Of a stretch of 64,000 bases of DNA, positions 4,203-61,797 are shown one piece after another. The notes below the pieces were generated by a model. It was given only the letters and a program-made list of their open reading frames with translations. It did no database searches and was not told where the DNA came from. The translations under genes and the position numbers were made by a program. Numbering within the stretch: position 1 is the stretch's first letter; each line of letters begins with the position of its first letter. The DNA is from Chiloscyllium plagiosum (Eukaryota), in the NCBI RefSeq assembly GCF_004010195.1, contig NC_057718.1:73357573-73421572 (forward strand), written 5' to 3'.

Positions 4203-4523
4203 TGATGTGGAGGTGCCAGTTTTGGACTGGTATGGACAAAGTTAAAAAATACGCAACACCAGGTTATAGTCCAACAAGTTTATTTTGAATATATATTAAT
4301 GAACCAAAACCTGCAACCCATTTTAAAAGATGAAAGACTTAACAGCAATCTAGGTTTGCTCAATATATTGTTTTAGTTGCATGATATTGTGATCTTTTGC
4401 TTTAAATTCTGTGTCCTATGATTATGCTCTGCAGCTACCTGATGAAGGAGCAGCAGTCCGAAAGCTAGTGCTTCCAAATAAACCTGTTGGACTATAACCT
4501 GGCGTTGTGTGATATTTAACTTT
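4203..4523. mobile_element. PLE-type inverted terminal pair (family B) with hammerhead core at 4439-4467
   Basis: 4238-4285 is the reverse complement of 4477-4523. The plus arm has ctgatga-a-gga...tcc-gaaa-gcta. Only the minus arm has a roughly 35-nt tail. Confidence 0.7.
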
Positions 4524-4811
4524 GAAGAGATATAGACTGTAACCTTTATATTATCAAATGGCACCATTGAGCAAACACTTCTCATCATGGGTTAATATTA
4601 AAATATTAAATTCATTAAAGTTATATGGTATTCTGTTATAGCAGTCACCCAGCATGAAGTTCCACACTTCATGTTTCAGATCAGCCAAGAATAGGTGTTT
4701 CCAAGATATTTAGTGCTCCTTGAACTCTCCTACTGCTACTTCCCAAGAACCATAACCAATACCTTGCAGTGTCACAAACATATTCTCAACCTCTTTGTCT
4801 CCAACATCAAG

Positions 4812-9630: not shown

Positions 9631-10031
9631 TGATAATATATAATAAGTAGCTATGATAAGTGCAGTCATAGAATATGGATAGATAAAATAAAGGAAAAAA
9701 TGCCCACTAAGAGTTGGAACACAGGGAATAGTAATTTGCTTCATTCACTCGTGGGACATGGGCATCACTGGCTGAGCTGGCATTTAACGTCCATCCTTAG
9801 ATGCCCTTGAGAAACTGATGGTGAACAGTTTTCTTGCGTCATTATAGTCCATCAGCCGTAGGTAGACCTGCAATACTATTGTGATGAAATTCCAGGATTT
9901 TCACCCAGCAATAGTGAAATAAATTCAAGTCAGATTATGTATGTATTGGAGGAGAACTTGTGGAGGGAGATGTTCCCATGTAACAGGTGCCCTTGTCCTT
10001 CTATATGGAAGCGGTCTTGGGTTTGGAAGGT

Positions 10032-11742
10032 AGGAGAAAGTGAGAACTGCAGATGATGGAGATTAGAGTCCAGCAGTGCGATGCTGGAAAAGCACAGCCG
10101 GTCAGGCAGCATCCAAGGAACAGGAGAATTGATGTTTTGAGCATAAGCCCTTCATTAGGAAAGAGAGCTGTCACCCAAGAGGGCTGAGGGATAAATGAGA
10201 GAGGGATAGGGCTAGGGGAGGGAGGGTGGGGGAATGGCAATAGCTGGGAATGTGATAGGTAGATGAACGTGAGGGGTGAAGGTGATAGGTCAGAGAAGAT
10301 GGTGGAGTAGATAGGTGGGAAGGAAGATGGATAGGTAGGACAGTTCAAAAAGGGGGTGCCAAATTGGAAGGTTGGATCTGCAATAAGGTGGGAGGAGGGG
10401 AAATGAGGAAACTGGTGAAATCCACATTGATCCTGTGTGGTTGGAGGGTTCGAAGGCAGAAGATGAGGTGTTCTTCCTCCAGGTGTTGAGTGGCAAGGGT
10501 TTGGCAATGGACTAGGCCCAGAACTTGCATGTCCTTGGTGGAGTGAGATGGGGAGTTAGTGTTCAGCACAGGGCAGTGGGGCTGTTTCATGCGTGTGTCC
10601 CAGAGATGTTCTGCAAATTGGCAGCCTGTCTCCCCAATGTGGAGGAGACCATATTGGGGACAATGGACACAGTAGATGACATGTATGGAAATACAAGTAA
10701 ATCTCTGTCAAATGTGGAAGGATCCTTTGGGGCCTTGGACGGAGGTGAGGGTGCAGGTTTTGCATTTCTTGTGGTGGCAGTTGAAGATACTGGGAGTGAA
10801 GATCCATTCATTGAATGAATGAATGAAGTTAGCTTCACTGAATGAATGAGTGAAGTTTGATTTATTGAATGGATGAATTTAGTTTGATTCATTCATTGAT
10901 TGAGCAAAGTTTGATTCATTGAATGAATGAATGAAGTTTGATTCATGAATGAATGAATGCAGTTTGATTTATTGATTGAATGAGTGAAATGGAGGGTGGG
11001 TTGGTGGGGGCGTGGACCTAACAAGGGAGTTGTGGAAGGAATGGTCTCTCCAGAACACAGGTTCAGGAGGGAAATATATCCCTGCTGGTGGGGTCTGTTT
11101 GTTGGTGGCAGAAATGGCGGAGGATGATGCGATGTGTCTGGAGGTGTGTGGTGTGAAAGGTGAGGACCAGGGGTGTTCTGTCCTTGTTATGGTTGGACGG
11201 GTGGTGTTCAAGGGCAGAGGTGTGGGAAGTGGAGGAGATGTGCTGAGGGCATCATCGATCATGTTGGAGGGGAAATTGCAGTCTTTGAAGAAGGAGGCCA
11301 TCTGGGATGATCTATGATGGGAGCAGATGTGATGGAGATAGAGGAATTGGGAATAAGGGATAGCGTGTATACAGGAGGCAGGGTGGGAGGAGGTGTAGTC
11401 AGGTAGCTGTGGGAATTGTCGGTTTGTAGTGGATTTCTGAGTTGAGGTTCAGGAAGGAGACGGAAGTGTCCGAAATGGTCCAGGTGAATCTGAGGTCAGG
11501 GTGGAAGGTGTTGGTGAAGTTGATAAACTGTTCAACTTCCTTGTGGGAGCATGAGGTGGTGCTGATACAGTCATTGATGCAGTGGAGGAGGAATTCCCAG
11601 TTACTTCCCCCCATCCCCCCACCTGCCCACCATCCCCAGCCCATTTATCTCTCAGTCCCCGTGGGCCCTAAGCCTCATTCCTGATGAAGGGCTTATGTTC
11701 AAAATGTCTGGCTGTGCTTTTCCAGCACCACACTCTTTGACA
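10032..11742 (-). mobile_element. Penelope-like element: RT C-terminus, GIY-YIG remnant, tailed pLTR and inverted 5' pLTR
   Basis: INDCI...EQFINFTNTFHPDLRFTW (RT) and EEEHLIFCLRTLQPHRIN (EN end). Inverted pLTR at 11590-11742. 14-bp TSD tgggtttggaaggt at 10018-10031 and 11743-11756. Confidence 0.9.
10806..10990. repeat. (TGAA)n-based compound microsatellite inside the PLE
   Basis: Repeated tgaatgaatgaa blocks with a higher-order agtttgattcatt unit. Confidence 0.9.
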
Positions 11743-12121
11743 TGGGTTTGGAAGGTGCTATCTGAGGATTTTTGGTGGATTTCTGCAACGTAGATTGCTG
11801 CTGCTGAGCATCAGTTATGGAATGATTGAACTTTTGTGGATATCATGCCAATCAAGTCGGCTGCTTGTCCCAGATGATGTCAAGCTTCTTGAGTGTTGTT
11901 GGAGCTGCACTCATCCAGGCAAATGGGGAGTATTCCATTATACTCCAGCCTTGTGCCTTGTAGATGGTGGATGGGCTTTGAGAAGTCAAGAAGTGAGTTA
12001 CTCGCTGCTGTATTCCTAGCCTCTGACTCTCGTAGCTTGTTTACTTTCAGGTGATTCCAGCTCAGTTTCTCCTCAGTGGTAACCCCACGGATGCTGATAA
12101 TGGGCGATTCAGTGATGGTAA

Positions 12122-28586: not shown

Positions 28587-28973
28587 TGAGATTAGATTAG
28601 ATTAGATTAGATTACTTACAGTGTGGAAACAGGCCCTTCGGCCCAACAAGTCCACACCGACCCGCCGAAGCGTAACCCACCCATACCCCTACATTTACCC
28701 CTTTACCTAACACTACGGGCAATTTAGCATGGCCAATTCACCTGACTTGCACATCTTTGGACTGTGGGAGGAAACCGGAGCCCCCGGAGGAAACCCACGC
28801 AGACACGGGGAGAACGTGCAAACTCCACACAGTCAGTCGCCTAAGTCGGGAAATGAACCCTGGTCTCTGGCGCTGTGAGGCAGCAGTGCTAACCACTGTG
28901 CCACCGTGCCGCCCACCTGCCACCGTGCCGCCCACCTGCCACCGTGCCGCCCACCTGCCACCGTGCCGCCCAC
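28587..28973 (-). mobile_element. HE1 SINE with 4x reiterated 19-bp 5' end
   Basis: (tagat)n tail; gccaccgtgccgcccacct repeated across 28900-28973. Confidence 0.9.
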
Positions 28974-29137
28974 GAGATCTTGTTGCATTTGAACATGGAC
29001 TGCTTTAGTATCTGATGAGTTGGGAATGGAGCTGAACATTATGTAATCATTGGCAAACATCCTCACTTCGGACGTTACAATAGAGGGAAGGTCATTGATG
29101 AAGCAATTGAGGATGGCTGGGCCTAAGACACTACCAG

Positions 29138-29530
29138 GGGTGGCACAGTGGCTTCATGGTTAGCATTGCTGCCTCACAGTGCCAGGGACCCGGTTTCAAT
29201 TCGGCCTCGAGTGACTGTCTGTGTGGAGTTTGTACATTCTCCCCGTGCCCGTGTGGGTTTCTTCTGGGTAATCCAGTTTCCTCCCTGTACAGCTTTGGAT
29301 GCACAAATTAGGTGGATTTGTCATTCTAAATTGCCCACAGTGTCCAGAGATGTGTGGGTTAGGTGGATTGGGTCAGGTGGATTAGCTATGGGAATTGCAG
29401 GGTTACAGGGATGGGGGAATGGGGGGAGGTGAGTCTGGGTGGGATGCTCTTTGGAGAGTTGGTGTGGACTTCTTGGGCTGAATGGCCTGTCTCTACACTG
29501 CAGGGATTCTATTTTATTCTATTCTATTCT
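29138..29530 (+). mobile_element. HE1-related SINE (variant)
   Basis: gggtggcacagtggcttcatggttagcattgctgcctcacag head and (attct)n tail. Confidence 0.8.
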
Positions 29531-29634
29531 CACCCTTTGCAGTTCCTACAGAGATGTCCTGGAGCTAAGATGACTCACCTCCAATAACCACAATCATCTT
29601 CCTATGTGCCAAATATGCTTCAACCAGTGGAGAA

Positions 29635-33849: not shown

Positions 33850-34690
33850 ATGGAAGATGTCATTTTTTGACATTAGAAAATGAATCTGGGGAAACGCTTT
33901 GGGGAACAAGGAAATGACAGAGGAGTAAAACAAATATTTGCATCATTCTTTATGGTAAAATATATTTTGAATATCTCATTAATGCAAAAGAATATGGATG
34001 AAAAATTAAATACTACCATCATTACTAGGGATGTGGTATTAGACAAACTAATGAGGTTAAAGGCAAATAAGGCCCCTGTCCCTGATGGCTTGTATCCTAG
34101 GATCCTAAAAAAAGGAAGGTACAGAGACAGTGGATGCATTGTTTGTCATTTTCCAAAAATTGTTAGATTCTGGGAAAGTACCACAGGATTGAAAAACTGT
34201 TAATATAACATCCCTATTAAAAAAAAAGGAGTGTGGGAAAAAGCACGTAATAGTAGGGTTAGGGTTAGTCTAACATCTATTGTTGGAAATGTATTGGAAT
34301 CAATTATTAAGGAACTAATCGCAGAACATTTAGAAAATCATAATCTAATCAAGCAGAGTCAGCATGACCTAATGAAAATGAAATTGTGTCTAATTTGTTC
34401 AGAATTTTTTAAGAAAGTCTCAACAAGAGTGACAGAGAGAAACCAGTAAATGTGTTGCATTTGGACATCCAGAAGGCATTTGACAAGATACCTCAAGAAA
34501 GGTTAAGTCATGAGATAAGAGCCTTCGGTGTTAGAGCTTATTAGCATAGATGGAGACTTTGCTAATGGATGAGAAACAGTGAGTGGCAATTAGGGGTTCT
34601 TTTTCAGATTGGCATACTATGACCAGTGGGGTTCCACAGGGATCAGTGATGGGACCACATCAGTTTGCAATGTATGTTAATGACTTGGAG
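33850..34690 (+). mobile_element. CR1 LINE fragment
   Basis: KAPVPDGLYPRIL, VSLTSIVG, KAFDK and GVPQGSV. Confidence 0.85.
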
Positions 34691-34699
34691 GAAGAAATC

Positions 34700-36005
34700 T
34701 ACTCAACCTCTCTTCATAGCTAGCACCCTCCATACCAGGCAACATCTTAGTGAATTTCCTCTGCACCCTCTCCAAAGCATCCACATCCTTTTGGTAATGA
34801 GACGACCAGAAATATATGCAGTATTCCAAATGTGGCCAAACCAAAGTCCTGTACAACTGTAACATGACCTGCCAACTCTTATACTCAATACCCTGTCTAA
34901 TGAAGGAAAGCATGCCGTATATTGATCTGCGTTGCCACTTCAGGATAAAATGGACCTGAACACCCAAATCTCTCTGTCCATCAATTTTCCCCAGGGCTTT
35001 TCCATTTACCGTATAGTTCACTCTTGAATTAGGATCTCCCAAAATGCATCATCTTGCATTTGTCCAGATTGAACTCCATCTGTCATTTCTCTGCCCAACT
35101 CTCCAATCTATCCATTTCTGCTGTATTCTCTGACAGTCCCCTTTACTATCTACTACTCCACTAATCTTAGTGCCATCTGCAAACTTACAAATCAGACCAT
35201 CTATACCTTCCTCCAGATCATTTATGTATAACACAAACAACAGTGGTCCCAACACCAGCCCTGTGGAACACTACTGGTCACAGTTCTCCATTTTAAGAAG
35301 CTTCCTTCCACTATACCCTCTGTCTCCTGCTGGCCATCCAGATCTTTATCCATCTAGTTAGTACACCCTGAATCTCATGCAACTTCACTTTCTCTATCAG
35401 CCTACCATGGAGAACCTTATCAAATGCCTTACTGAAGTCCATGTATATGTATATGGCATCTACAGCCCTTCCTTCATCAATCAACTTTGTCACTTCCCAT
35501 AAAAATTCTATTATGTTGGTAAGACATGATCTTCCCTGCACAAAACCATGTTGCCTATCAATGATAAGTCTATTTTCTTCCAAATGTAAATAGATCCTAT
35601 CCCTTAGTATCTTCTCCAGCAGCTTCCCTACTACTGACATCAGGCTCACTGGTCTGTAATTACCTGGATTATCCCTGCTACCCTTCTTAAACAAGGGGAC
35701 AACATTAGCATCTTTGAACCCATGTTCAAAGATGCTTCAAAGATGTCTATTAAGGCCCCAGCTACTTTCTCTCTTGCTTCCCTCAGTAACCTGGGACAGA
35801 TCCCATCTGGACCTGGGGACTTGTCCACCTTAATGCCATTTAGAATACCCAACACTTTCTTCCACCTTATACCAACTTGACCTAGAGTAATCAGACATCG
35901 ATCCCGAGTCTCAACATCCATCATGTCCTTCTCCTTGGTGAATACTGACGCAAAGTACTCATTAAAAATCCTACCCATTTTCTCTGACTCCATGCATAAC
36001 TTTCT
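34700..36005 (-). mobile_element. CR1 LINE RT fragment
   Basis: ORFs 35646-35993, 35311-35694, 35049-35255 and 34677-35042 (NYRPVSL, QHGF, DFSKAFDKV, KFADGTK). Confidence 0.9.
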
Positions 36006-41251: not shown

Positions 41252-44200
41252 TGTTATGAAGGTGAAGGCATTTACTGTACCTTTAAGAGAAACTGAATGC
41301 TGTTCTGAACTGAGAGATTACAAGCACCTGTGTACAGCCTAGGCGGGGGCTGGGTATTGAATTAGTGCCCAATCTCCATCTTCATCTCTGTGAGTAAAGT
41401 TTACCCAGGCAGAACAGAAAAAGAAGGGAAAGAAGTTACAATTTTGAGAGATACGGGATCTAATTAGTGTCGAGAGCGTGGTGCTGGAACAGCACAGCAA
41501 GTCAGGCAGCATCCGAGGAGCAGGAGAATCGACATTTTGGGCATAAGCTGATCTCCAGCATCTGCAGTCCTCATTTTCTCCTTGGGATCTAATCAATCTC
41601 TAATAGAAAGAGATGAACGTACTTGCACGCTTTCTGACATGTTACCCAAGAGAGTGGTAATTTGTGGAATAAATGGACAGAAATTTAGCATTCCCATGAG
41701 TAAGATTTAGTTAGAGAGCCAAATCAAGACTGGGGAAGTAACAGTGGGAGAGATTGACAGAGTGTCAGTTCCAGGAATCCAGTTTGCTCTTAGGAATGAT
41801 TCAGCAGGATCCAAGGTGGGAGTGACACCCCTTATGGTGGAGAAGCCAAAAGTACCAGGGAATTGACGAGTTAAAAGAAAAATACGCTGGAATTTTCCCA
41901 GATTATGCAGGAACAAAATCCCACTGTTATAAGTCACAGCACGAAGCATAAACTAAAGAGCAAGATGAAGGAGTTGAGGTTCAGTTAGCTTTTGATGTAA
42001 TGGTGCATGAAAAATCTGTACAGGCAGAGGATCAGGCAGAAGTGTTTAGTCCTGAAAGGCTAATGGACTTTTAACAGAAAGATGAGACAATAAAATATAT
42101 ATGTCTGCAGTCCTCATTTTCTCTTAGGGATCTAATCAGTTTCTAATAGAAAGAGATGAACGCATTTGCACTCTTTCTGACAAGTTACCCAAGAAAGTGG
42201 TAATTTGTGGAATAGATGTGTACTCAGAAAAGGAATCAGAAGTATTCCTGAGAGTTATTATCTTAAAGATAGAATCCTAAGATTAAAATGGAGACCATGG
42301 CAGGTGAGTGCAGAGGAGAAATGGAAGTGCTCCAGGTTGTGTTGCTGGTAGCATACAGACAGGAAGTGTTATGGGTAGCACATGGGTAGGAGGTCACCTA
42401 GGTGTGAGGAAGCCTCAAACTAAGGTACAAAAGCACTTCTATTGGCCTGGACTGGACAATGATGTGATTAAATTTTGCTGTACATGTCATGCGTGCCAAA
42501 TGTAGGTAAGCCACAGGCAATAATAAAACCAGCATCTTTGTTAATAATCCCCGCATTCAAAGAGCCTTTCATGCGGGTTATGTTCAATTGTGTAGGTCCC
42601 CTCCCTTAAACTAAAAACAGGAACCAGTACTTGCTAACCATATTGGATGCATCTACCAGATTTCTGGAGGCCATTCCATTAAAGAGTATTGAGGCAAAAA
42701 GGGTGATGGAGGAGTTAGTAGCTTTCTTTACTTGGTATTGACTACCTAGAGAGATTCAGTCAGACTCAGGGTCTAATTTTACTGCTATGCTATTTAAGGA
42801 AGTCATGGATAGTTTAACAGGACTTTAAATCAAACGCATACCATTCTGAATCCCAGGGAGCTTTGGAAAGGTGGCAGCAGACTCTGAAGACCATGTTAAG
42901 AGCATATTGTCAGGATTGCGTGAATGATTTGGATAAAGGTATCCCATTCATATTGTTTGCCATTAGAGATGCCCCAATTGAATCATCTCAGTTTACTCCC
43001 TTTGAGTTAATACTTGGCCATGAAGTAGGAGGGCCTTTGAAATTAATTAAAGAAAAATGGACAGGATCGAAGTCGGAGATCTCACATTGGATTATGTATC
43101 TGAGGTGAGAGAGAGATTAAGTCAGTTAGATGAGTTAGCTAAACAGAATCTGAAAAGGGCACAGCATAGAATGAAGCAAGTGGCAGATAAAAACTCTGGA
43201 ATTCAGACTTTTTCCCATAGGGATGACTTATTAGTATTGTTACCAGTGGTAAGAGATCATTTCAATGAAAAGCTTAGTGGTCCCTATCAAATTGAGAAAA
43301 AGTTGAGTCAGCTAAATGATTGGTAAAGATGCCAGATAGAAAAAAAAAACTGTCATGTGAATATGTTGAAACCTTATTATAATAGAGACAGGGAACTGGA
43401 GAAGCAGGTGTTAGTTACTGCAGAGTGAGGAATCAAATACAGATGTTATGGAGTTTGATGTGCCTCAAAATACACTAAATAATGAGGAACTCCTTGAGGA
43501 CTGGGATAGATTAGTGAACTATCTGTCTTTGGAGCAAAGAATCCAGTTGAAAATTGTATTGCAGCAGTATGAGGACATATGAAGGAATAAGGTGGGGAGG
43601 ACTAATACTATTGTGCATGAGGTGGAATTAGGGAATACTATTCCAATTAAAAAAAACACCACTACAAGGCTAATCCTTTCAAAGAAACACAGGTCCAGAA
43701 GGAAGTGGATGTGAAAATATCATCAAACTGAGTCAGAGTGAGTGGAGTTTGCCAATCGTGTTTGTTCCCAAACCTGACAGGACTCAACAATTTGGTGTGG
43801 ACTAACGGAAGGTCAATGCTTTAAACAAATTGGACTCCTATCCAATACCAAGTTTGGAGGACTGTGTAGAGAAAGTTGGACAAGCCACTTTCATCACAAA
43901 GTTGGACTTACTGTGTGGTTATTGGCAGGTACCTTTATCAGATAAAGGAAAGACGTTTCTGCATTTCTAACCCCAAGTGGGCTATATCAATTCAAAGTGA
44001 TACCCTTTGGAATGAAGAACACAAAATTTCAATGGACAGAACAATGCCAGGAGGCATTTGACAATCTAAAAGCAGTACTAACCACCACACCAGTTTCTGC
44101 TAGCAATATAGGAGTTGGAACTGTACTGCTACAGGAAGTTGATGATGAAATTGAACAGCCAATTGGCTACTTTTCAAAGAAACACCCACAGAGAAACTAC

Positions 44201-47082: not shown

Positions 47083-47224
47083 AGGTAAAAACAAGGATTG
47101 CAGATGCTGGAAACCAAATTCTAGATTAAAGTGGTGCTGGAAAAGCACAGCAGTTCAGGCAGCATCCTGCTCCTTGGATGCTGCCTGAATTGCTGTGCTT
47201 TTCCAGCACCACTCTAATCTAGAA
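47083..47224. mobile_element. Short inverted PLE pLTR pair with the hammerhead deleted
   Basis: ttctagattaaagtggtgctggaaaagcacagcagttcaggcagcatcc is mirrored after an 8-nt spacer; only the left arm has the tail. Confidence 0.8.
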
Positions 47225-51040: not shown

Positions 51041-52919
51041 CAGTTATATGCCTTTTCTTCTGAATTTCTATATTCACTTGCATATGGCATTGAGAGCAAT
51101 CTGGAGATTAATGAAATTAATACCACGAGTTTTAAAATACTCATGGATAGGGATAACAGCAGTCCTCGGGTGAAGGTTTTGAATTGGGAGAAGGCAAATT
51201 ACAAATATATTAGACAGGAACTGGACAATGTTGATTGGAGGCGGATATTTGAGTGTAAATCTACATTGGACAAGTGGGAATATTTCAAAAGGCAGTTAAC
51301 AGGAATTCAGGAGCAGCACATTCATGTGAGAATGAAGGGTATGTATAGCAGGTTACGTGAACATTGGATGACAAGGCTATTATGAGTTGGTCAAAAAGAA
51401 AAGGGAAGCATATGTAAGGGCTAAGAGGATGGGAACTGATGAAGCTTTTGACCTATATAAGAAAAGTAGGAAAGAACTTATAACAAGGAATTGCTAGGGC
51501 TGAAATGGGTCATGTAAATTCGTTAGCAAACAAGATTAAGGAGAATCCCAAAGCTTTTTATCCCTATATATAAAGCAAGAGGGTAGCCAGGGAAAGGATT
51601 GGCCCACTCAAGGGCAAAGGAAAGAATCTATGTGTGGAGCCAAGAGAGATGGGTGAGGTCCTAAATGAATATTTTGTGTCACTATTCACCAAAGAGAATG
51701 AATTGGTGGAGGATGATCTCAGGGAAGGGAGTGTCAAGTTTTTAAGTCAAGTTGTAATTATAAAGGAAGAGGTATTATCCATCTCAAAAAGTATTAAGGT
51801 AGATAAGTCCCTGAGTCCTGATGGGATCTATCCCAGAATATTGAGAGAGGTAATTATATGCATGTGAGCCTCACATTGGTGGTAGGGAAATTATTGGAAA
51901 AGATTCTCAGGGACAAGATCTATATGCATTTGGAAACGAATAGGCCTATTAGTGATAGACAGTATGGTTTTGTGCAGGGGAGGTCATGCCTCAGTAACTT
52001 TATCGAGTTTTTTAAGGAGGTAACGAAGATGATTGACGAGGGTAAAGAAGTTGCTGTTATTTGCAAGGACTTCAGTAAAGCCTATGACACAGTCTCTCAT
52101 GGCAGATTGTCCAAAAGATTAAGTCACAAGGTATCAGGGGTGAGCTCGCAAGATGGATACAGAACTGGCTTAGCCAGGGTAGCAGTGGAAGGATGCTTTT
52201 CAGAATGGAGGGTTGTGACTAGTGGTGTTCCACAGGGATCTTTTTAGGACCTTTGTTGCTCGTGGTCTATATAAATGATTTGGAGAAAATTGTAGCTGGT
52301 GTACGCGGTAAGTTTGTGGATGATACAAAGATTGGTTGACTTATGAATTCTAAGGAGGATTGTTGGAAGATACAGCAGGAAATAAATTAAGTCATACAGT
52401 CATACAGATGTACAGCACAGACCCTTCGGTCCAACTCATCAATGCCAATGAGATATCCTAAAATAAATCGAGCCCCATTTGTCCACATTGGGCCCATATC
52501 CCTCTAAACCCATCCAGATGTCTTTTAAATGTTGTAATTGTACCAGCCTCCACCACTTCCTTTTGCAGCTCAATCCATGCACGCACCACCCTCTGCATGA
52601 AATGTTTCCCGTTTGGTCCCTTTTAAATCTTTCCCTTCTCACCTTAAACCTATACCCTGTAGTTTTGGCAAGCATGCAGAAGAGGTTTACCAGGATGCTG
52701 TCTGGATTGGAGAGTATGAACTATAAGGAGAGGATAGAAAAACATGGGTTGATTTCTCTAATGCAGAAGAGGTTGAAGAGAGACTTGACAGAAATCAGTA
52801 AAATTTTGAGATCCATAGTTACAGTTGACGGTCAGAATCTTTTTCCCAGAGTTGAAATGTATAAAACTAAGGCAAGAGGGAGAAAGTTCAAAGGAGATGT
52901 GAGGGATAAGTTTTTTTTT

Positions 52920-53150
52920 CAAAGTTTGTGAGAAGATTTGTAGCTCGGGTGCTCGTTGCTGTAGTTCTGTTCGCCGAGCTGGAAGTTTTTGTTGCAAACG
53001 TTTCGTCTCCTGTCTAGGTGACATCCTCAGTGCTTGGGAGCCTCCTGTGAAGCGCTTCACAGGAGGCTCCCAAGCACTGATGATGTCACCTAGACAGGGG
53101 ATGAAACGTTTGCAACAAAAACTTCCAGCTCAGCGAACAGAACCACAGCA
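52920..53150. mobile_element. PLE-type palindromic terminal pair (family C) with two hammerhead motifs
   Basis: 52957-53053 is the reverse complement of 53054-53150 (5 mismatches in 97, no spacer). The 37-nt tail at 52920-52956 is on one arm only. Confidence 0.8.
53074..53113 (+). ncRNA. Minimal hammerhead motif (family C); mirror copy at 52994-53033 on the minus strand
   Basis: GCA-CUGAUGA-U-GUCACC-uagaca-GGGGAU-GAAA-CGUU-UGC. The minus copy has CUGAGGA and GGAGAC. Helix I is GCA/UGC. Confidence 0.65.
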
Positions 53151-54379
53151 TAAGATTTTTTTACACAGAGAATTTTAAGAACATGGAATGCACTGTCGGG
53201 GTGGTGGTGGAGGACACAGATACGATAAAAGTTTGAGGTACTTTTAGATAGGCACATGGATATAAAAGAAATAGAGGGATATGGACCAAAAGTAGGCAGA
53301 AGGGATTAGTTTAATTTGATGTTGTGTTTGGCAGTTCCTGTGTTGAACAGTTCTATGTTTTATGTACCTGTCCTGCTACTTTAAGGGACCTGTGGACATA
53401 CACTTCTTGGTGATTCCCAGGGTCCTACTGTTCATCATGTATTCCCTTGCCCAAGTGTAAGACCTCCATATTTTTCTGAATTGAATTCTACTTACCACTA
53501 ATCTATATCCATCTATATCCTTCTGTAATCTAAGGCTATTCTCACAATTTACCATCCCACCAATGTTTGTATCATCTGTGAATTTAGTGGGACTCCATTG
53601 GATACAGGCTTTCAGTCAGAAAAACACCACCTGCTTCCAGTCAATTGTGGATCCAGTTGCCAAATTTCTTTGGATCCCAAAGGCTTATTTTTCCTACCAG
53701 TCCTCCCTTCAGGACCTTATCAAACGTCTTGAGTAGAATCATAACATCCAAAGCATTTCCCTTATCCACACACCTTGTTCCCCTCTCCAAACATTTTGAT
53801 TAAGTTGGTCAGACATGAGTTAACAAAACCATGATTTACCTAGTAATGACTGGAACTGTCTGGCCAAGGATGAAGGAAGTTGAAGCAATCAATAAATACA
53901 AAAGGAAATTGGATGGACACTGACAGAATCAAACTTGCAGTGCTCCAGGGCCCGAACAGGCAACTCTGACTAGGTTGCTTTGCGGAGAGGTGGCATGGAC
54001 TTGACAGACCAAAATAGCTTCCGATTTTGCTTTAGATGCCTCTGTAACTGTTTAAATACAACAATAAAAGCATTATTTGCCTTCAATTTTTCAAGCAGTC
54101 TAGATTGTTATGATTCTATTTCTTCATCAAATTTATTTTTCAGGAGAAAACTGTTATGATTGTGGCTCTACATTTCCCTGAGGGTATCTGAATCTTCCAG
54201 GCAAGCAACAATTGATTTAGATCTGGGTGTGACACCATAGTAGTTTTATTGATATAATGTCCCATGTTTCATTGCCAATGTGCACATATCCCAGAACTAA
54301 TTAAAATAATAATTCCTCTCAATGAGATTGTAATGCTGTGAAGAGAAAAATAATTGTACAGGAGAATGATCACGAAGGG

Positions 54380-56470: not shown

Positions 56471-58794
56471 AGTGCACTTGCAAGATGACAGCAGTGGAAT
56501 AGGCAGCATTCAGGCTCCTGTGTCTGGGCTTATCCTCCTCGCCTGCATTTTTATGTTTTCTGTTTTCTTCTATCCCTTTTTTTCCCCAAACCTATTTTCT
56601 AAAGTGAGCTCTTCGGCAGGAGACAACTTGATGGGGTCCAAAGTGGCAGTGGTGTCCTCAGAGGCAGCTTGACTGCAGAGATGGTTGGCTGGCCTGTGAA
56701 GCCTGGAGTGGACTGTCATTTCTGCATGGAGTGGGCCTCTGACTGAGGCATGGCATGGGCTGGTGTAGCCTGGAGCAGGAAACTCTCTCTGTGGCATAGC
56801 ATGGGCTGGTGTAACAGGCTACTCTAACAATACCAATAACAATAGCTACTTTCTCCTTAACCACCTCCCCATTACTAAGATATAAAACACAGAATTCCAG
56901 CTGCAGGAGGCCAGACCTTAAATAGCTTCGCTAAAGGATAACGTTTCTGGACATGACTGGGCACAGGTATCTTAAGACGCTTGGGCATTTTTGTTAGGTC
57001 ATTGCTGACTCCCGTAGGAGATCTCCTTTAAGTCCATCAGGTGGATCTTATTGCCAGTGTCTCTCAAAGTCGCTATTATTAAATTGGAACGGGTCCTGTT
57101 TAACGTAGTCTTGGTGAAGCTCGGAATCTCTACATCGTTACAGTTTAATGGATGGGAGACAGCTTCAGCACAACTACCAATGTTCAGTTCCCAAACTCCA
57201 GGGTGGCACTGACTGCTTGGTTTCATTCCTCAGTTCCTCAATTCATTTGCCTTTGGTTCCAACTATAAATCTTCTGGTGAAATTTTCAGAATCTTGTAGT
57301 ATGTGGCCCAGCTGTCACTGTCATCAATCTCACTGTCAGGGCTAACAGTTACATTACTTTTGCAGTTGATGAGGCCACATGCTCAGTTTCTGATCTGGTT
57401 GAAGTCCCATCAGTATAGGAGTCATCAACTGTTTCAGTTAATGTTTTTAGTACGGCCATCTGGCACAGCAATTCCAAACAATATGAACCTGCCAGCTTCC
57501 ACCACAAAGAAGCCCCATGGGCAGAAATCCATGTCTTTCACAGATACCCATTAGGAATCTTTAGCTTTTGTCCTACACAATGCAGAGACCAGTTTGCTGG
57601 CAGCAGGTAACAATGCAGAAAATGAATCAAAGGAATGATGAAATAACTGTGATGCTGCATTGCATGTGACCATTCAATACATTGTAAACATCCAAGAGAA
57701 AACCCTTGTGAAATCAGTAATTGTTTATCTTCCTTTTTCACCACTCCTATATATATTACCTCTGTGATTTCAGCAGATCTTGAAACAGAATCCTCAGATC
57801 CCTGTGCTAACTGCTCAGATGTTCTTGGCCAACATCTTCTTGATCTGGATGCGAGAAAGGCCCAGCCAATGTCCATGTCATCTGCACTATTAGTCATCAG
57901 GGCAGGTAGCATCAGGTGGGGCTCTGACAATCCAGAGGCAGGGCTCAAGGCAAAAGGGTGAGGGAAGAGCATCCACTTTATGACACACATGCCCTTCCTT
58001 GCAAGCCAAGAGATGGAGAACTCTTTGCTTCACTATTCAGTGAGGCCTGAAGGCTAAGATGAGCATTTTTCAATTCCATAAAGATTAAGGTCGTAGCATG
58101 TAGACCACTGTTAACATGCTTTCAATTATCTTCATGCAAGTGGCCGCTCATACGATGAGCATCAGATATCAACACTAAAAGCTAAAACATCATGGCTGTC
58201 CTGCCAGCTAGTCTCCTCCAAACTCTCTGAAATCATGTAGAATGTCTCTGAACATGCTGATTAACTGTCACATGATGTTCCTGCTCCAAAAGCATTCCTA
58301 TTTGATGGTCTTCAACATCCAAATGGGCAGGGCTTTAAGTATACCATGCCTACTAATGGAGAATTTCCACTGCTGTTCAGTCTTCAATAATTATTCCTAC
58401 TCACTTGTAACGTGTGAAGTATGATGTGACAATCACTGCCACTCTTGGCAGTGTAAGTGAGGTGGCATAACCAAGGTCCCAGAAGGAGAAATAAATAAAA
58501 CTTCTGATTAACATACAGATCTAACAAGTCTTATATACCACAAAATGGAGGTCCAGTATGATGAGTACATTCATTTCCAAGTATTGTTAAACTATTTATT
58601 CCTCTCTGGACTGGTTGACAGTGCATATTGTGACTGTGCTTTGTCAGAGTGAGTGACCTCCTCTGAGGAGATTAAATCTTCCTCCAGCATTCACCTGCTG
58701 TGAGGCTGAGGTACCTGTGGAAGAGGTACAAGACATAAATGCTTCATTGTCATCACTGTACACATTTTCAGTTTTCAATGTTTACTACCATGAA

Positions 58795-58923
58795 TCACCT
58801 GATGAAGGAGCGTCGCTCCAAAAGCTAGTGTGCTTCCAATTAAACCTGTTGGACTATAACCTGGTGTTGTGTGATTTTTAACTTTGTACACCCCAGTCCA
58901 ACATCGGCATCTCCAAATCATTG
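58795..58923 (+). mobile_element. Solo PLE family B terminus with mutated hammerhead
   Basis: tcacctgatgaaggagcgtcgctccaaaagctagtg (GAAA changed to AAAA); 10-bp TSD ctaccatgaa at 58785-58794 and 58924-58933. Confidence 0.8.
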
Positions 58924-59029
58924 CTACCATGAAGTTAACATGAGTGAATGTTGTGTGTTACAAGACTGTGGGATGTTTAATTCTGTCTTTAGGTATTTGG
59001 AGAATCCATCTCTTCATTGTTAATGCCCA

Positions 59030-60939: not shown

Positions 60940-61797
60940 TATTATGGACCAGACTTGACCCTCTCAAAATATTTTAAGCAGATAGCCTCAACCCTAACTT
61001 TTTCTTCATGTGAAGTGCATGTTCCAGATGTGATGTGACTGGTCAAACCACTCAACATTCAGCAGAACACAGTTTATTTAAACACTATAGTTAAAATGCA
61101 AAAAAAAGGAATTTAGAATGATTAACTATTGAAAAACCTAACCAAATAATAGATATAGTAGCTATTACTAATTATCGGTTTCAATATAGTAACATTGCAT
61201 AAACACACCCCTTGGCAAAAGGTAAATTCGGATGCAGATTACATACAGTTCTCTAATCCAGGAAGAAACAACATCAAGGGAGATTTCAGAGTATGTAGCA
61301 GCTAGGAATCATTCACTGAAGCTTCCAACCCTTCTGGGACCCCAGACAGCTTCTGACTGCTCCAGCTAAAATAAATCTCGAAAGCCTGGTCTGTGAGAAT
61401 TGTGTTGAGAGTGTGGTTTTGGAAAAGCACAGCAGGTCAGGCAGCATCTGAGGAGCAGGAGATTCGACATTTTGGACAAGAACCCTTCATCAGGAATCAA
61501 ATTCCTGGAGAAAGGCTCTTGCCCGAACCTCGATTCTCCTGCTCTTCAGATACTGCTTGACCTGCCGTGCTTTTCCAGCACCACACTCTTGACTCTGAAC
61601 TCCAGCATTTGCAGTCCCCACTTTCTCCCTGTGAGAATTGGCCACCCCTCTTGCATTGTTACAACTGTTTAAAAAAACCCAAATGCCTCATAAATTGTTG
61701 ACTTAGGTCATCTGCGGTTCGGCATCTCTGCCTTTACAGCCTCACTTCAAAAAAATCCAGAACAAAATAACCTTTTCAAAGTGACAGCATCGTTACA
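60940..61797 (-). mobile_element. Solo Gypsy LTR with an inverted PLE pLTR pair (61403-61628) inserted
   Basis: Reverse complement of the 17292/25068 LTR motifs. The PLE insert is flanked by the 12-bp TSD ctgtgagaattg at 61391-61402 and 61629-61640. Confidence 0.8.

Follow-up and report, generated by a model that had tools for sequence, protein, structure and literature searches.

The palindrome at 52920..53150 of the window, a 64,000-nucleotide stretch of Chiloscyllium plagiosum DNA, is real, but it is not a separate non-coding element. The unit is very probably a single, heavily 5′-truncated insertion of Penelope/Poseidon type, arranged head-to-head with a one-sided tail and decaying neutrally; its identity as a head-to-head insertion of this type, judged from sequence, appears close to secure. 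Established for the unit are the identity of its arms with the ends of a parent ORF, a target-site duplication (TSD), a junction palindrome native to the parent, two classes of 3′ end and independent decay of the arms. The inverted pLTR, the tail, the TSD, the junction palindrome and hammerheads on opposite strands have all been published already as features of Penelope-like elements (PLEs), and the object itself, a single decayed remnant, in a known layout, from a shark retrotransposon family that is very abundant, is of little weight. Its value is as a clear trace left by PLE insertion, with a junction on a palindrome of the parent and arms that end at two presumed reverse transcription start sites. 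Together with two neighbouring units that cannot be fold-backs, it leads to a countable genomic test of two-ended priming against self-priming.

Results

Architecture and insertion site

Alignment of the arms (52957-53053 and 53054-53150) gave 97 nt on each side, complementary at 92 of 97 positions and with a spacer of 0, exactly as the initial annotation had described. The mismatched pairs are 53026/53081, 53008/53099, 53005/53102, 52975/53132 and 52963/53144. Among 24 inverted-repeat pairs in the window (at least 25 nt, within 1.5 kb) this is the longest without a spacer, and it is far beyond chance. Long degenerate inverted-repeat pairs at 28587-29532 and 34462-35441 (71-84%) consist of other repeats in opposite orientation. 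The 37-nt tail reported for one arm alone is indeed confined to the left arm, with no counterpart on the right. The arms share a perfect 10-bp palindrome, GAAGCGCTTC, at the inversion junction; perfect 10-mer palindromes occur about once per 1000 positions of the window (64 found). The features are collected in Table 1.

The earlier report of a CR1 interrupted between two T-rich flanks was also correct, and the flanks are a TSD. The two copies are 13 nt long with one mismatch, giving a size of about 12-13 bp. When the unit and one TSD copy are removed, the flanks align continuously to three other CR1 copies of the window. Sequencing run X5 has 79 contigs, from other CR1 copies, in which 52916 is followed immediately by ACACAGAGA, the sequence after the right TSD copy. 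No host gene was identified around the unit in the part of the window examined. An exon-like open frame on the plus strand (57653-57961) has plausible splice signals; it gave no PDB match and one uninformative repetitive match among 1.8 billion cluster representatives.

Table 1 Features of the focal unit and of the other head-to-head PLE units in the window
Feature	Position	Strand	Basis or remark
Left TSD copy, in 3′ end of CR1-type LINE	52906..52918	+	boundary uncertain by 1-2 T
Tailed arm, 139 nt: parent ORF end, hammerhead, ORF start	52920..53058	-	P0001 and P0013 matches
Tail, one-sided, 37 nt	52920..52956	-	65% A+C; ORF nucleotides +69 to +105
Minimal type I hammerhead, core intact	52994..53033	-	position map; predicted cut after 52997
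Stop codon of preceding ORF copy, at helix II/loop 2 border	53014..53016	-	closes the frame ending in EALHRRLPSTEDVT
Parent start ATG, made of hammerhead A9, extra U and G10.1	53022..53024	-	aligns with first residues of P0002 and P0003
Perfect 10-bp palindrome GAAGCGCTTC, inversion junction common to both arms	53049..53058	.	native to parent
Tail-less inverted arm, 102 nt	53049..53150	+	stops at ORF +68, where tail begins
Second minimal hammerhead, damaged	53074..53113	+	T at 53102; predicted cut after 53110
Right TSD copy	53150..53162	+	CR1 resumes at 53163
Head-to-head unit, second PLE family, both arms tail-less	4237-4524		TSD none found
Head-to-head insertion, 1.7 kb, decayed coding remains	10032-11742 (10018-11756 with flanks)		TSD exact 14 bp
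Head-to-head unit, abutting non-overlapping arms	41465-41583 (41455-41593 with TSD)		TSD exact 10 bp
Head-to-head unit joined at 3-nt microhomology	47083-47224		TSD none found
Near-spacer-less palindrome, another PLE family	61403-61628 (61391-61640 with flanks)		TSD exact 12 bp

The parent element

Translation of the minus-strand arm finds P0001, a 656-residue reverse transcriptase (RT) named from Chiloscyllium punctatum (1 match among 26 candidates, E 5e-14). Residues 8-53 of P0001 are identical to the translation of 53057-52920 at 42 of 46 positions, and the match starts at K8, upstream of the mirror axis. A second frame of the arm ends in EALHRRLPSTEDVT and a stop codon; these are the last 14 residues of P0013, without a difference (53058-53017). 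P0013 is a shark protein with an RT and a C-terminal endonuclease motif, VYKIPCxxCxxHYIGQTGR, with histidines downstream; it is 85% identical to P0001 over their overlap. The arm is therefore the C-terminus of P0013 followed by the N-terminus of P0001, so that each arm is the junction of ORF end and ORF start which defines a pLTR, here with a hammerhead. In all, the arms encode the last 14 codons of the parent and its first 35 (about 23 without the tail). P0002 and P0003, with which the parent start was aligned, are trematode-type homologues.

The initial annotation had proposed a non-coding derivative of a PLE and had looked to a link with an RT/GIY-YIG ORF. The link was found through the protein matches, which cover both ends of such an ORF, and the PLE origin holds. 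The term non-coding has to be dropped, because the arms are coding sequence of the parent and family copies continue into the parent past the centre.

P0001 matches RVT_1 at E 3.9e-11, with DKG and YVDD motifs in the alignment. The Pfam GIY-YIG model gave a weak match to one of five proteins (P0118, E 0.024), and the endonuclease is recognised by its motif. By eye, no cysteine cluster is seen in the linker that joins RT to endonuclease in P0013, P0007 and P0118. The linker cysteine cluster serves as a criterion for the Penelope/Poseidon clade in PMC8557442, by which the presence of DKG and the lack of such a cluster fit this clade. The parent fits an EN+ PLE of the Penelope/Poseidon clade, a placement made by motifs and not by a tree. 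The layout of the unit comprises an adjacent inverted 5′-truncated copy, a tail of the 30-40 bp class at one end and a TSD, all of which are given as marks of PLEs (PMC8557442, PMC3846280). The best non-shark relatives of P0001 are trematode and cestode RTs, with Dicrocoelium 50% identical along 94% of the length; the 120 relatives listed include no name from a bony fish or a tetrapod, which may reflect annotation bias.

The hammerheads

Both strands read GCA-CUGANGA-U-helix II-GAAA-CG-U-U-UGC, with the cores at 53030 (minus) and 53077 (plus), 47 nt apart. The minus-strand hammerhead has a 3-bp helix I, CUGAGGA, the extra U, a 6-bp helix II composed of GUC/GAC and CCU/AGG around one internal mismatch, GAAA and an ACGU palindrome. 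This copy possesses the complete core of a minimal hammerhead (min-HHR): CUGANGA/GAAA/UH, a nucleotide between 9 and 10.1, the G10.1-C11.1 pair and a palindromic 15.2-16.2. In the plus-strand copy the T at 53102 turns G10.1-C11.1, a pair highly conserved in min-HHRs (PMC4209133), into G.U. Of the two minimal hammerheads originally proposed, the motif on each strand thus stands; the cores lie on opposite strands and the plus-strand one has lost G10.1-C11.1. An Rfam-type search with hammerhead models, a check put forward earlier, returned no hammerhead match for the unit, either at gathering score or at E of 10 or less. A miRNA precursor was rejected: there were 0 Rfam matches at gathering score, and the best reached 53.8 bits against a cut-off of 90. 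The sub-threshold Rfam miRNA hairpins (17 of the 18 matches at E of 10 or less) merely reflect the hairpin.

Folding prediction does not favour the hammerhead in a monomer (-23.5 against -27.4 kcal/mol; z -0.29). For the plus-strand transcript of the unit, a hairpin of -182 kcal/mol is predicted against -112 kcal/mol with the hammerhead forced; the corresponding values for the minus-strand transcript are -181 and -116 kcal/mol, and the DNA hairpin is predicted at -111 kcal/mol. These folding energies support the earlier suggestion that a long hairpin would bury the ribozyme. Nothing supports a function for the hairpin or for a cruciform, and the arms decayed independently. A transcript has a single sense hammerhead, which is paired with its antisense, so the dimer that min-HHRs need is impossible in cis; the monomer is reported to lack activity (PMC4209133). 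No piled-up molecule ends were found in run X21 (about 2 in 100 read), a polyA single-cell library that is ill suited to the purpose. The hammerheads are, on this model, passengers of the insertion.

The family in sequencing runs

A query of 52740-53066, that is one arm and 13 bases past the axis, was aligned to four runs, including X5 and X21. The arm is covered by 29270, 8686 and 1282 records in three contig runs, whose summed depth is not convertible to copy number, and, in X21, by 395 raw RNA reads. Family records in every one of the four runs match to 53058 and then leave as loose ends (189, 66, 123 and 22 records). The consensus of these ends begins TGTGATG and not with the mirror ACAGGAG. 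When translated by hand it yields 6 of the first 7 residues of P0001 and, in the other frame, 7 of 10 residues of P0013. The family therefore continues past 53058 into the coding sequence of the parent, which makes GAAGCGCTTC a palindrome of the parent itself. A second loose-end consensus is seen two bases earlier, at 53056 (67 contigs in X5, 15 reads in X21), and probably represents a sister subfamily with a shorter central palindrome.

Depth past 53058 falls to 0.07, 0.16, 0.19 and 0.26% of that just before in the four runs (absolute depth 816, 1511 and 69 in the three contig runs). The mirror form can account for no more than this, since extensions by a single base through chance would be enough to produce such depth. 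No read or contig was seen to span the junction with this query of the left arm and 13 bases, and no RNA holder was found among the matches listed in the search of the sequencing runs. Read ends in X21 form two classes, at 52918/52920 (66 and 26 reads) and at 52955/52960 (34 and 25 reads), thus both arm ends are typical of the family.

Decay and variation

Compared with the family, the left arm has two private changes (53008 and 52963) and the right arm three (53081, 53102 and 53132), two of which are CpG transitions. No change in one arm is compensated in the other. The arms decayed independently. At 52959/53148, a position with T in about 71-99% of family depth, both carry the same minority letter, and they therefore come from one source copy or subfamily.

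In 40 of 56 rows of variation, the family varies at N7, the mismatch pair, loop 2, H17 and CpG sites; A14 and one base of helix II also vary, chiefly in one run. Invariant in the same rows are C3-A6, G8, A9, G10.1, A13, A15.1, U16.1 and helix I. The core is thus conserved in the family, as had been anticipated, in that variation avoids most core positions. The reading frames overlap the core, so selection on the ribozyme is not cleanly inferable from its conservation. The A>G and T>C rows are not taken as evidence of RNA editing.

Other PLE units in the window

BLAST against the window found no second nucleotide copy of the unit. Two other PLE end modules are present, at 11 and 4 loci, and the view that the unit belongs to a third PLE family is upheld. 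Including the focal unit, 6 of the 16 PLE-end loci are head-to-head and 4 of these 6 have a TSD; the search for one at the remaining two, 47083-47224 and 4237-4524, was negative. The second PLE family also has a simple tailed copy (58783-58933) with a TSD of about 12 bp.

In the longest of the units the end with the tail lies at 10032 and the inverted end, which lacks one, at 11677-11742; inside is an AT-rich simple-repeat block at about 10780-10990. The palindrome at 61403-61628 contains two hammerhead-type cores back to back, one of them degenerate, and has a tail on one side. In the unit at 41465-41583 the minus, tail-less arm corresponds to positions 18-99 of the reference copy and the plus arm to positions 99-131, the tail alone; the two arms share a chance match of 7 bases at most. 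At 47083-47224 it is the arm without a tail that extends further 5′, by 11 nt. These last two units cannot be fold-backs of a single cDNA, which favours two-ended priming; they are two in number and belong to another PLE family than the focal unit.

Discussion

Mechanism of insertion

For the focal unit alone, fold-back and two-ended priming predict the same product. We somewhat favour a two-ended priming step, inferred as follows. The GIY-YIG domain of the element would cut both strands of the T-rich CR1 site some 12-13 bp apart. One DNA end would then prime reverse transcription at the distal start site, which is ORF +105 at the end of the tail, and its partner at the proximal one (ORF +68), with both cDNAs running upstream through the hammerhead. 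Having the same sequence, the cDNAs could pair by their 3′ ends only at a self-complementary stretch. Annealing would occur at GAAGCGCTTC and fill-in would give a palindrome without spacer. Counting against this model, the full overlap of the arms would require strand displacement on one RNA, or two RNAs.

The PAc protein of Anolis carolinensis is described as cutting and extending both strands at AT-rich DNA and as initiating cDNA synthesis internally, at two positions that delimit the tail; the PAc hammerhead works with help from the protein, and insertion in vitro does not depend on it (PMC11167929). By analogy with PAc, the focal tail may be the stretch between two RT start sites (PMC11167929).

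The same element could also have acquired its mirror arm by fold-back or self-priming of one cDNA, or from an antisense template, at GAAGCGCTTC. Arkhipova et al. 2013 proposed self-priming for junction palindromes, and theirs is the reading in the literature (PMC3846280). What lies at the junction is an exact palindrome already in the parent; both arms, moreover, share the minority letter at 52959/53148, consistent with one source copy or subfamily. The stop of the second arm at the start of the tail, the second end class of the family, is left unexplained by fold-back, which is itself excluded for the two head-to-head units of the neighbouring family. We regard this alternative, which concerns the mechanism step alone, as possible but doubtful.

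For head-to-head PLE palindromes in general we lean, by a little, to twin-priming products made from the two start sites that bound the tail and sealed at a self-complementary sequence. If true, twin priming would be a single cause for the junction palindrome, the tail on one side and the head-to-head arrangement, with no need of the antisense template that was put forward in 2013. Its products could be counted in shark genomes, which have many short copies. We found no paper with a twin-priming model of PLE inversion in a search that covered subscription journals and older Penelope reviews thinly, and none on shark PLE hammerheads or on this shark family where subscription journals were thinly covered.

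Other identities of the unit

The unit could also be read as a non-autonomous palindrome of retrozyme-like or MITE-like kind that is itself transcribed and inserted anew as a whole. This would agree with the compact, TSD-bounded form and with the nonzero depth past the centre in the contig runs, and non-LTR retrozymes have been reported as derived from pLTRs (10.64898/2026.07.22.740005). We hold it to be very unlikely. No more than 0.07-0.26% of depth can be mirror form, and by arithmetic the same figures would result if 1-2% of parent copies were extended one base by chance. No strand-change joint occurs among the loose-end rows listed, for a query that extended just 13 bases beyond the axis. 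The arms belong to the coding sequence of the parent, retrozymes are built as head-to-tail tandems unlike the unit, and a hairpin of -182 kcal/mol would hide the hammerhead as well as the 3′ part that is bound by protein in PAc. A non-LTR retrozyme in the strict sense was rejected on the grounds that there is no direct repeat of the unit, that the arms are parent ORF and that the family continues past the centre; a MITE or foldback DNA transposon, on the grounds that the ends are asymmetric by 37 nt and derived from an RT element.

That the host keeps the hairpin, whether as a substrate for dsRNA, small-RNA or editing pathways or in the form of a cruciform, seems highly improbable, in spite of the great predicted stability of the RNA and DNA forms and the presence of the family in one RNA run (395 reads). 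The five changes are split 2/3 between the arms, none is compensated and two are CpG decay. No more than 22 of the 395 RNA reads are at least 99% alike, and in X21 the flank has a depth of 0 at 52740-52805 and of about 3 at most from there to 52904; these reads therefore do not establish transcription of this locus, and no host gene was identified in the part examined. Perfect palindromes are prone to artefacts and no spanning read was seen, as would suit an assembly artefact from a fold-back chimeric read. There are, however, 5 differences between the arms, the right arm ends where the second end class of the family does, and a TSD flanks the unit with the CR1 resuming in register, which leaves an artefact hardly credible.

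Comparison with known systems

The closest published layout is that of Pen2a_Av/Pen2_Av of Adineta vaga, where PMC3846280 describes a head-to-head inverted pLTR overlapping the direct one by 15 bp (10 bp in the focal unit), likewise with a palindrome at the junction. The one-sided tail is 31 bp against 37 in the focal unit, and the TSD 9-10 bp against 12-13; the pLTR holds the opening 12 codons, or 22 with the tail, against about 23 and 35 (PMC3846280). Unlike Pen2a_Av/Pen2_Av, the focal insert has no ORF body and consists of two truncated pLTR pieces (PMC3846280). The inverted-pLTR layout is called typical in PMC8557442.

PAc, a Poseidon element, belongs to a different family and is likened here by description and not by sequence comparison (PMC11167929). 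As in the focal parent, its ORF starts at stem II of the hammerhead, and the cut site lies 26 nt after the start codon, against a predicted 28 in the focal parent (PMC11167929). The PAc tail lies between two internal RT start sites in AC-rich sequence, the distal one at +111-118 compared with +105 for the focal unit, and the target is AT-rich like the focal site (PMC11167929).

The min-HHRs of metazoan PLEs (Cercyon, Xena, Poseidon and Neptune) have the extra nucleotide between 9 and 10.1 and the G10.1-C11.1 pair, as does the focal minus-strand copy, and share with it a palindromic 15.2-16.2, a long helix II and a short helix I (PMC4209133). Dual min-HHRs on opposite strands are reported 100-700 bp apart, compared with 47 nt between the focal cores; helix I has 4-5 bp in Schistosoma and 3 bp in the focal unit, where one copy is damaged (PMC4209133). 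Non-LTR retrozymes resemble the unit in being short, related to pLTRs and equipped with a type I hammerhead; they are described as head-to-tail tandems of two or more units with no protein, whereas the focal unit is a head-to-head coding fragment (10.64898/2026.07.22.740005).

The focal arms differ from the products of L1 twin priming in being copies of one and the same stretch, begun at two fixed and closely spaced start sites. In L1 inversions, the parts of the RNA that are joined do not overlap. L1 twin priming has cDNA synthesis primed from both ends of the target, a junction at microhomology and a TSD that is kept.
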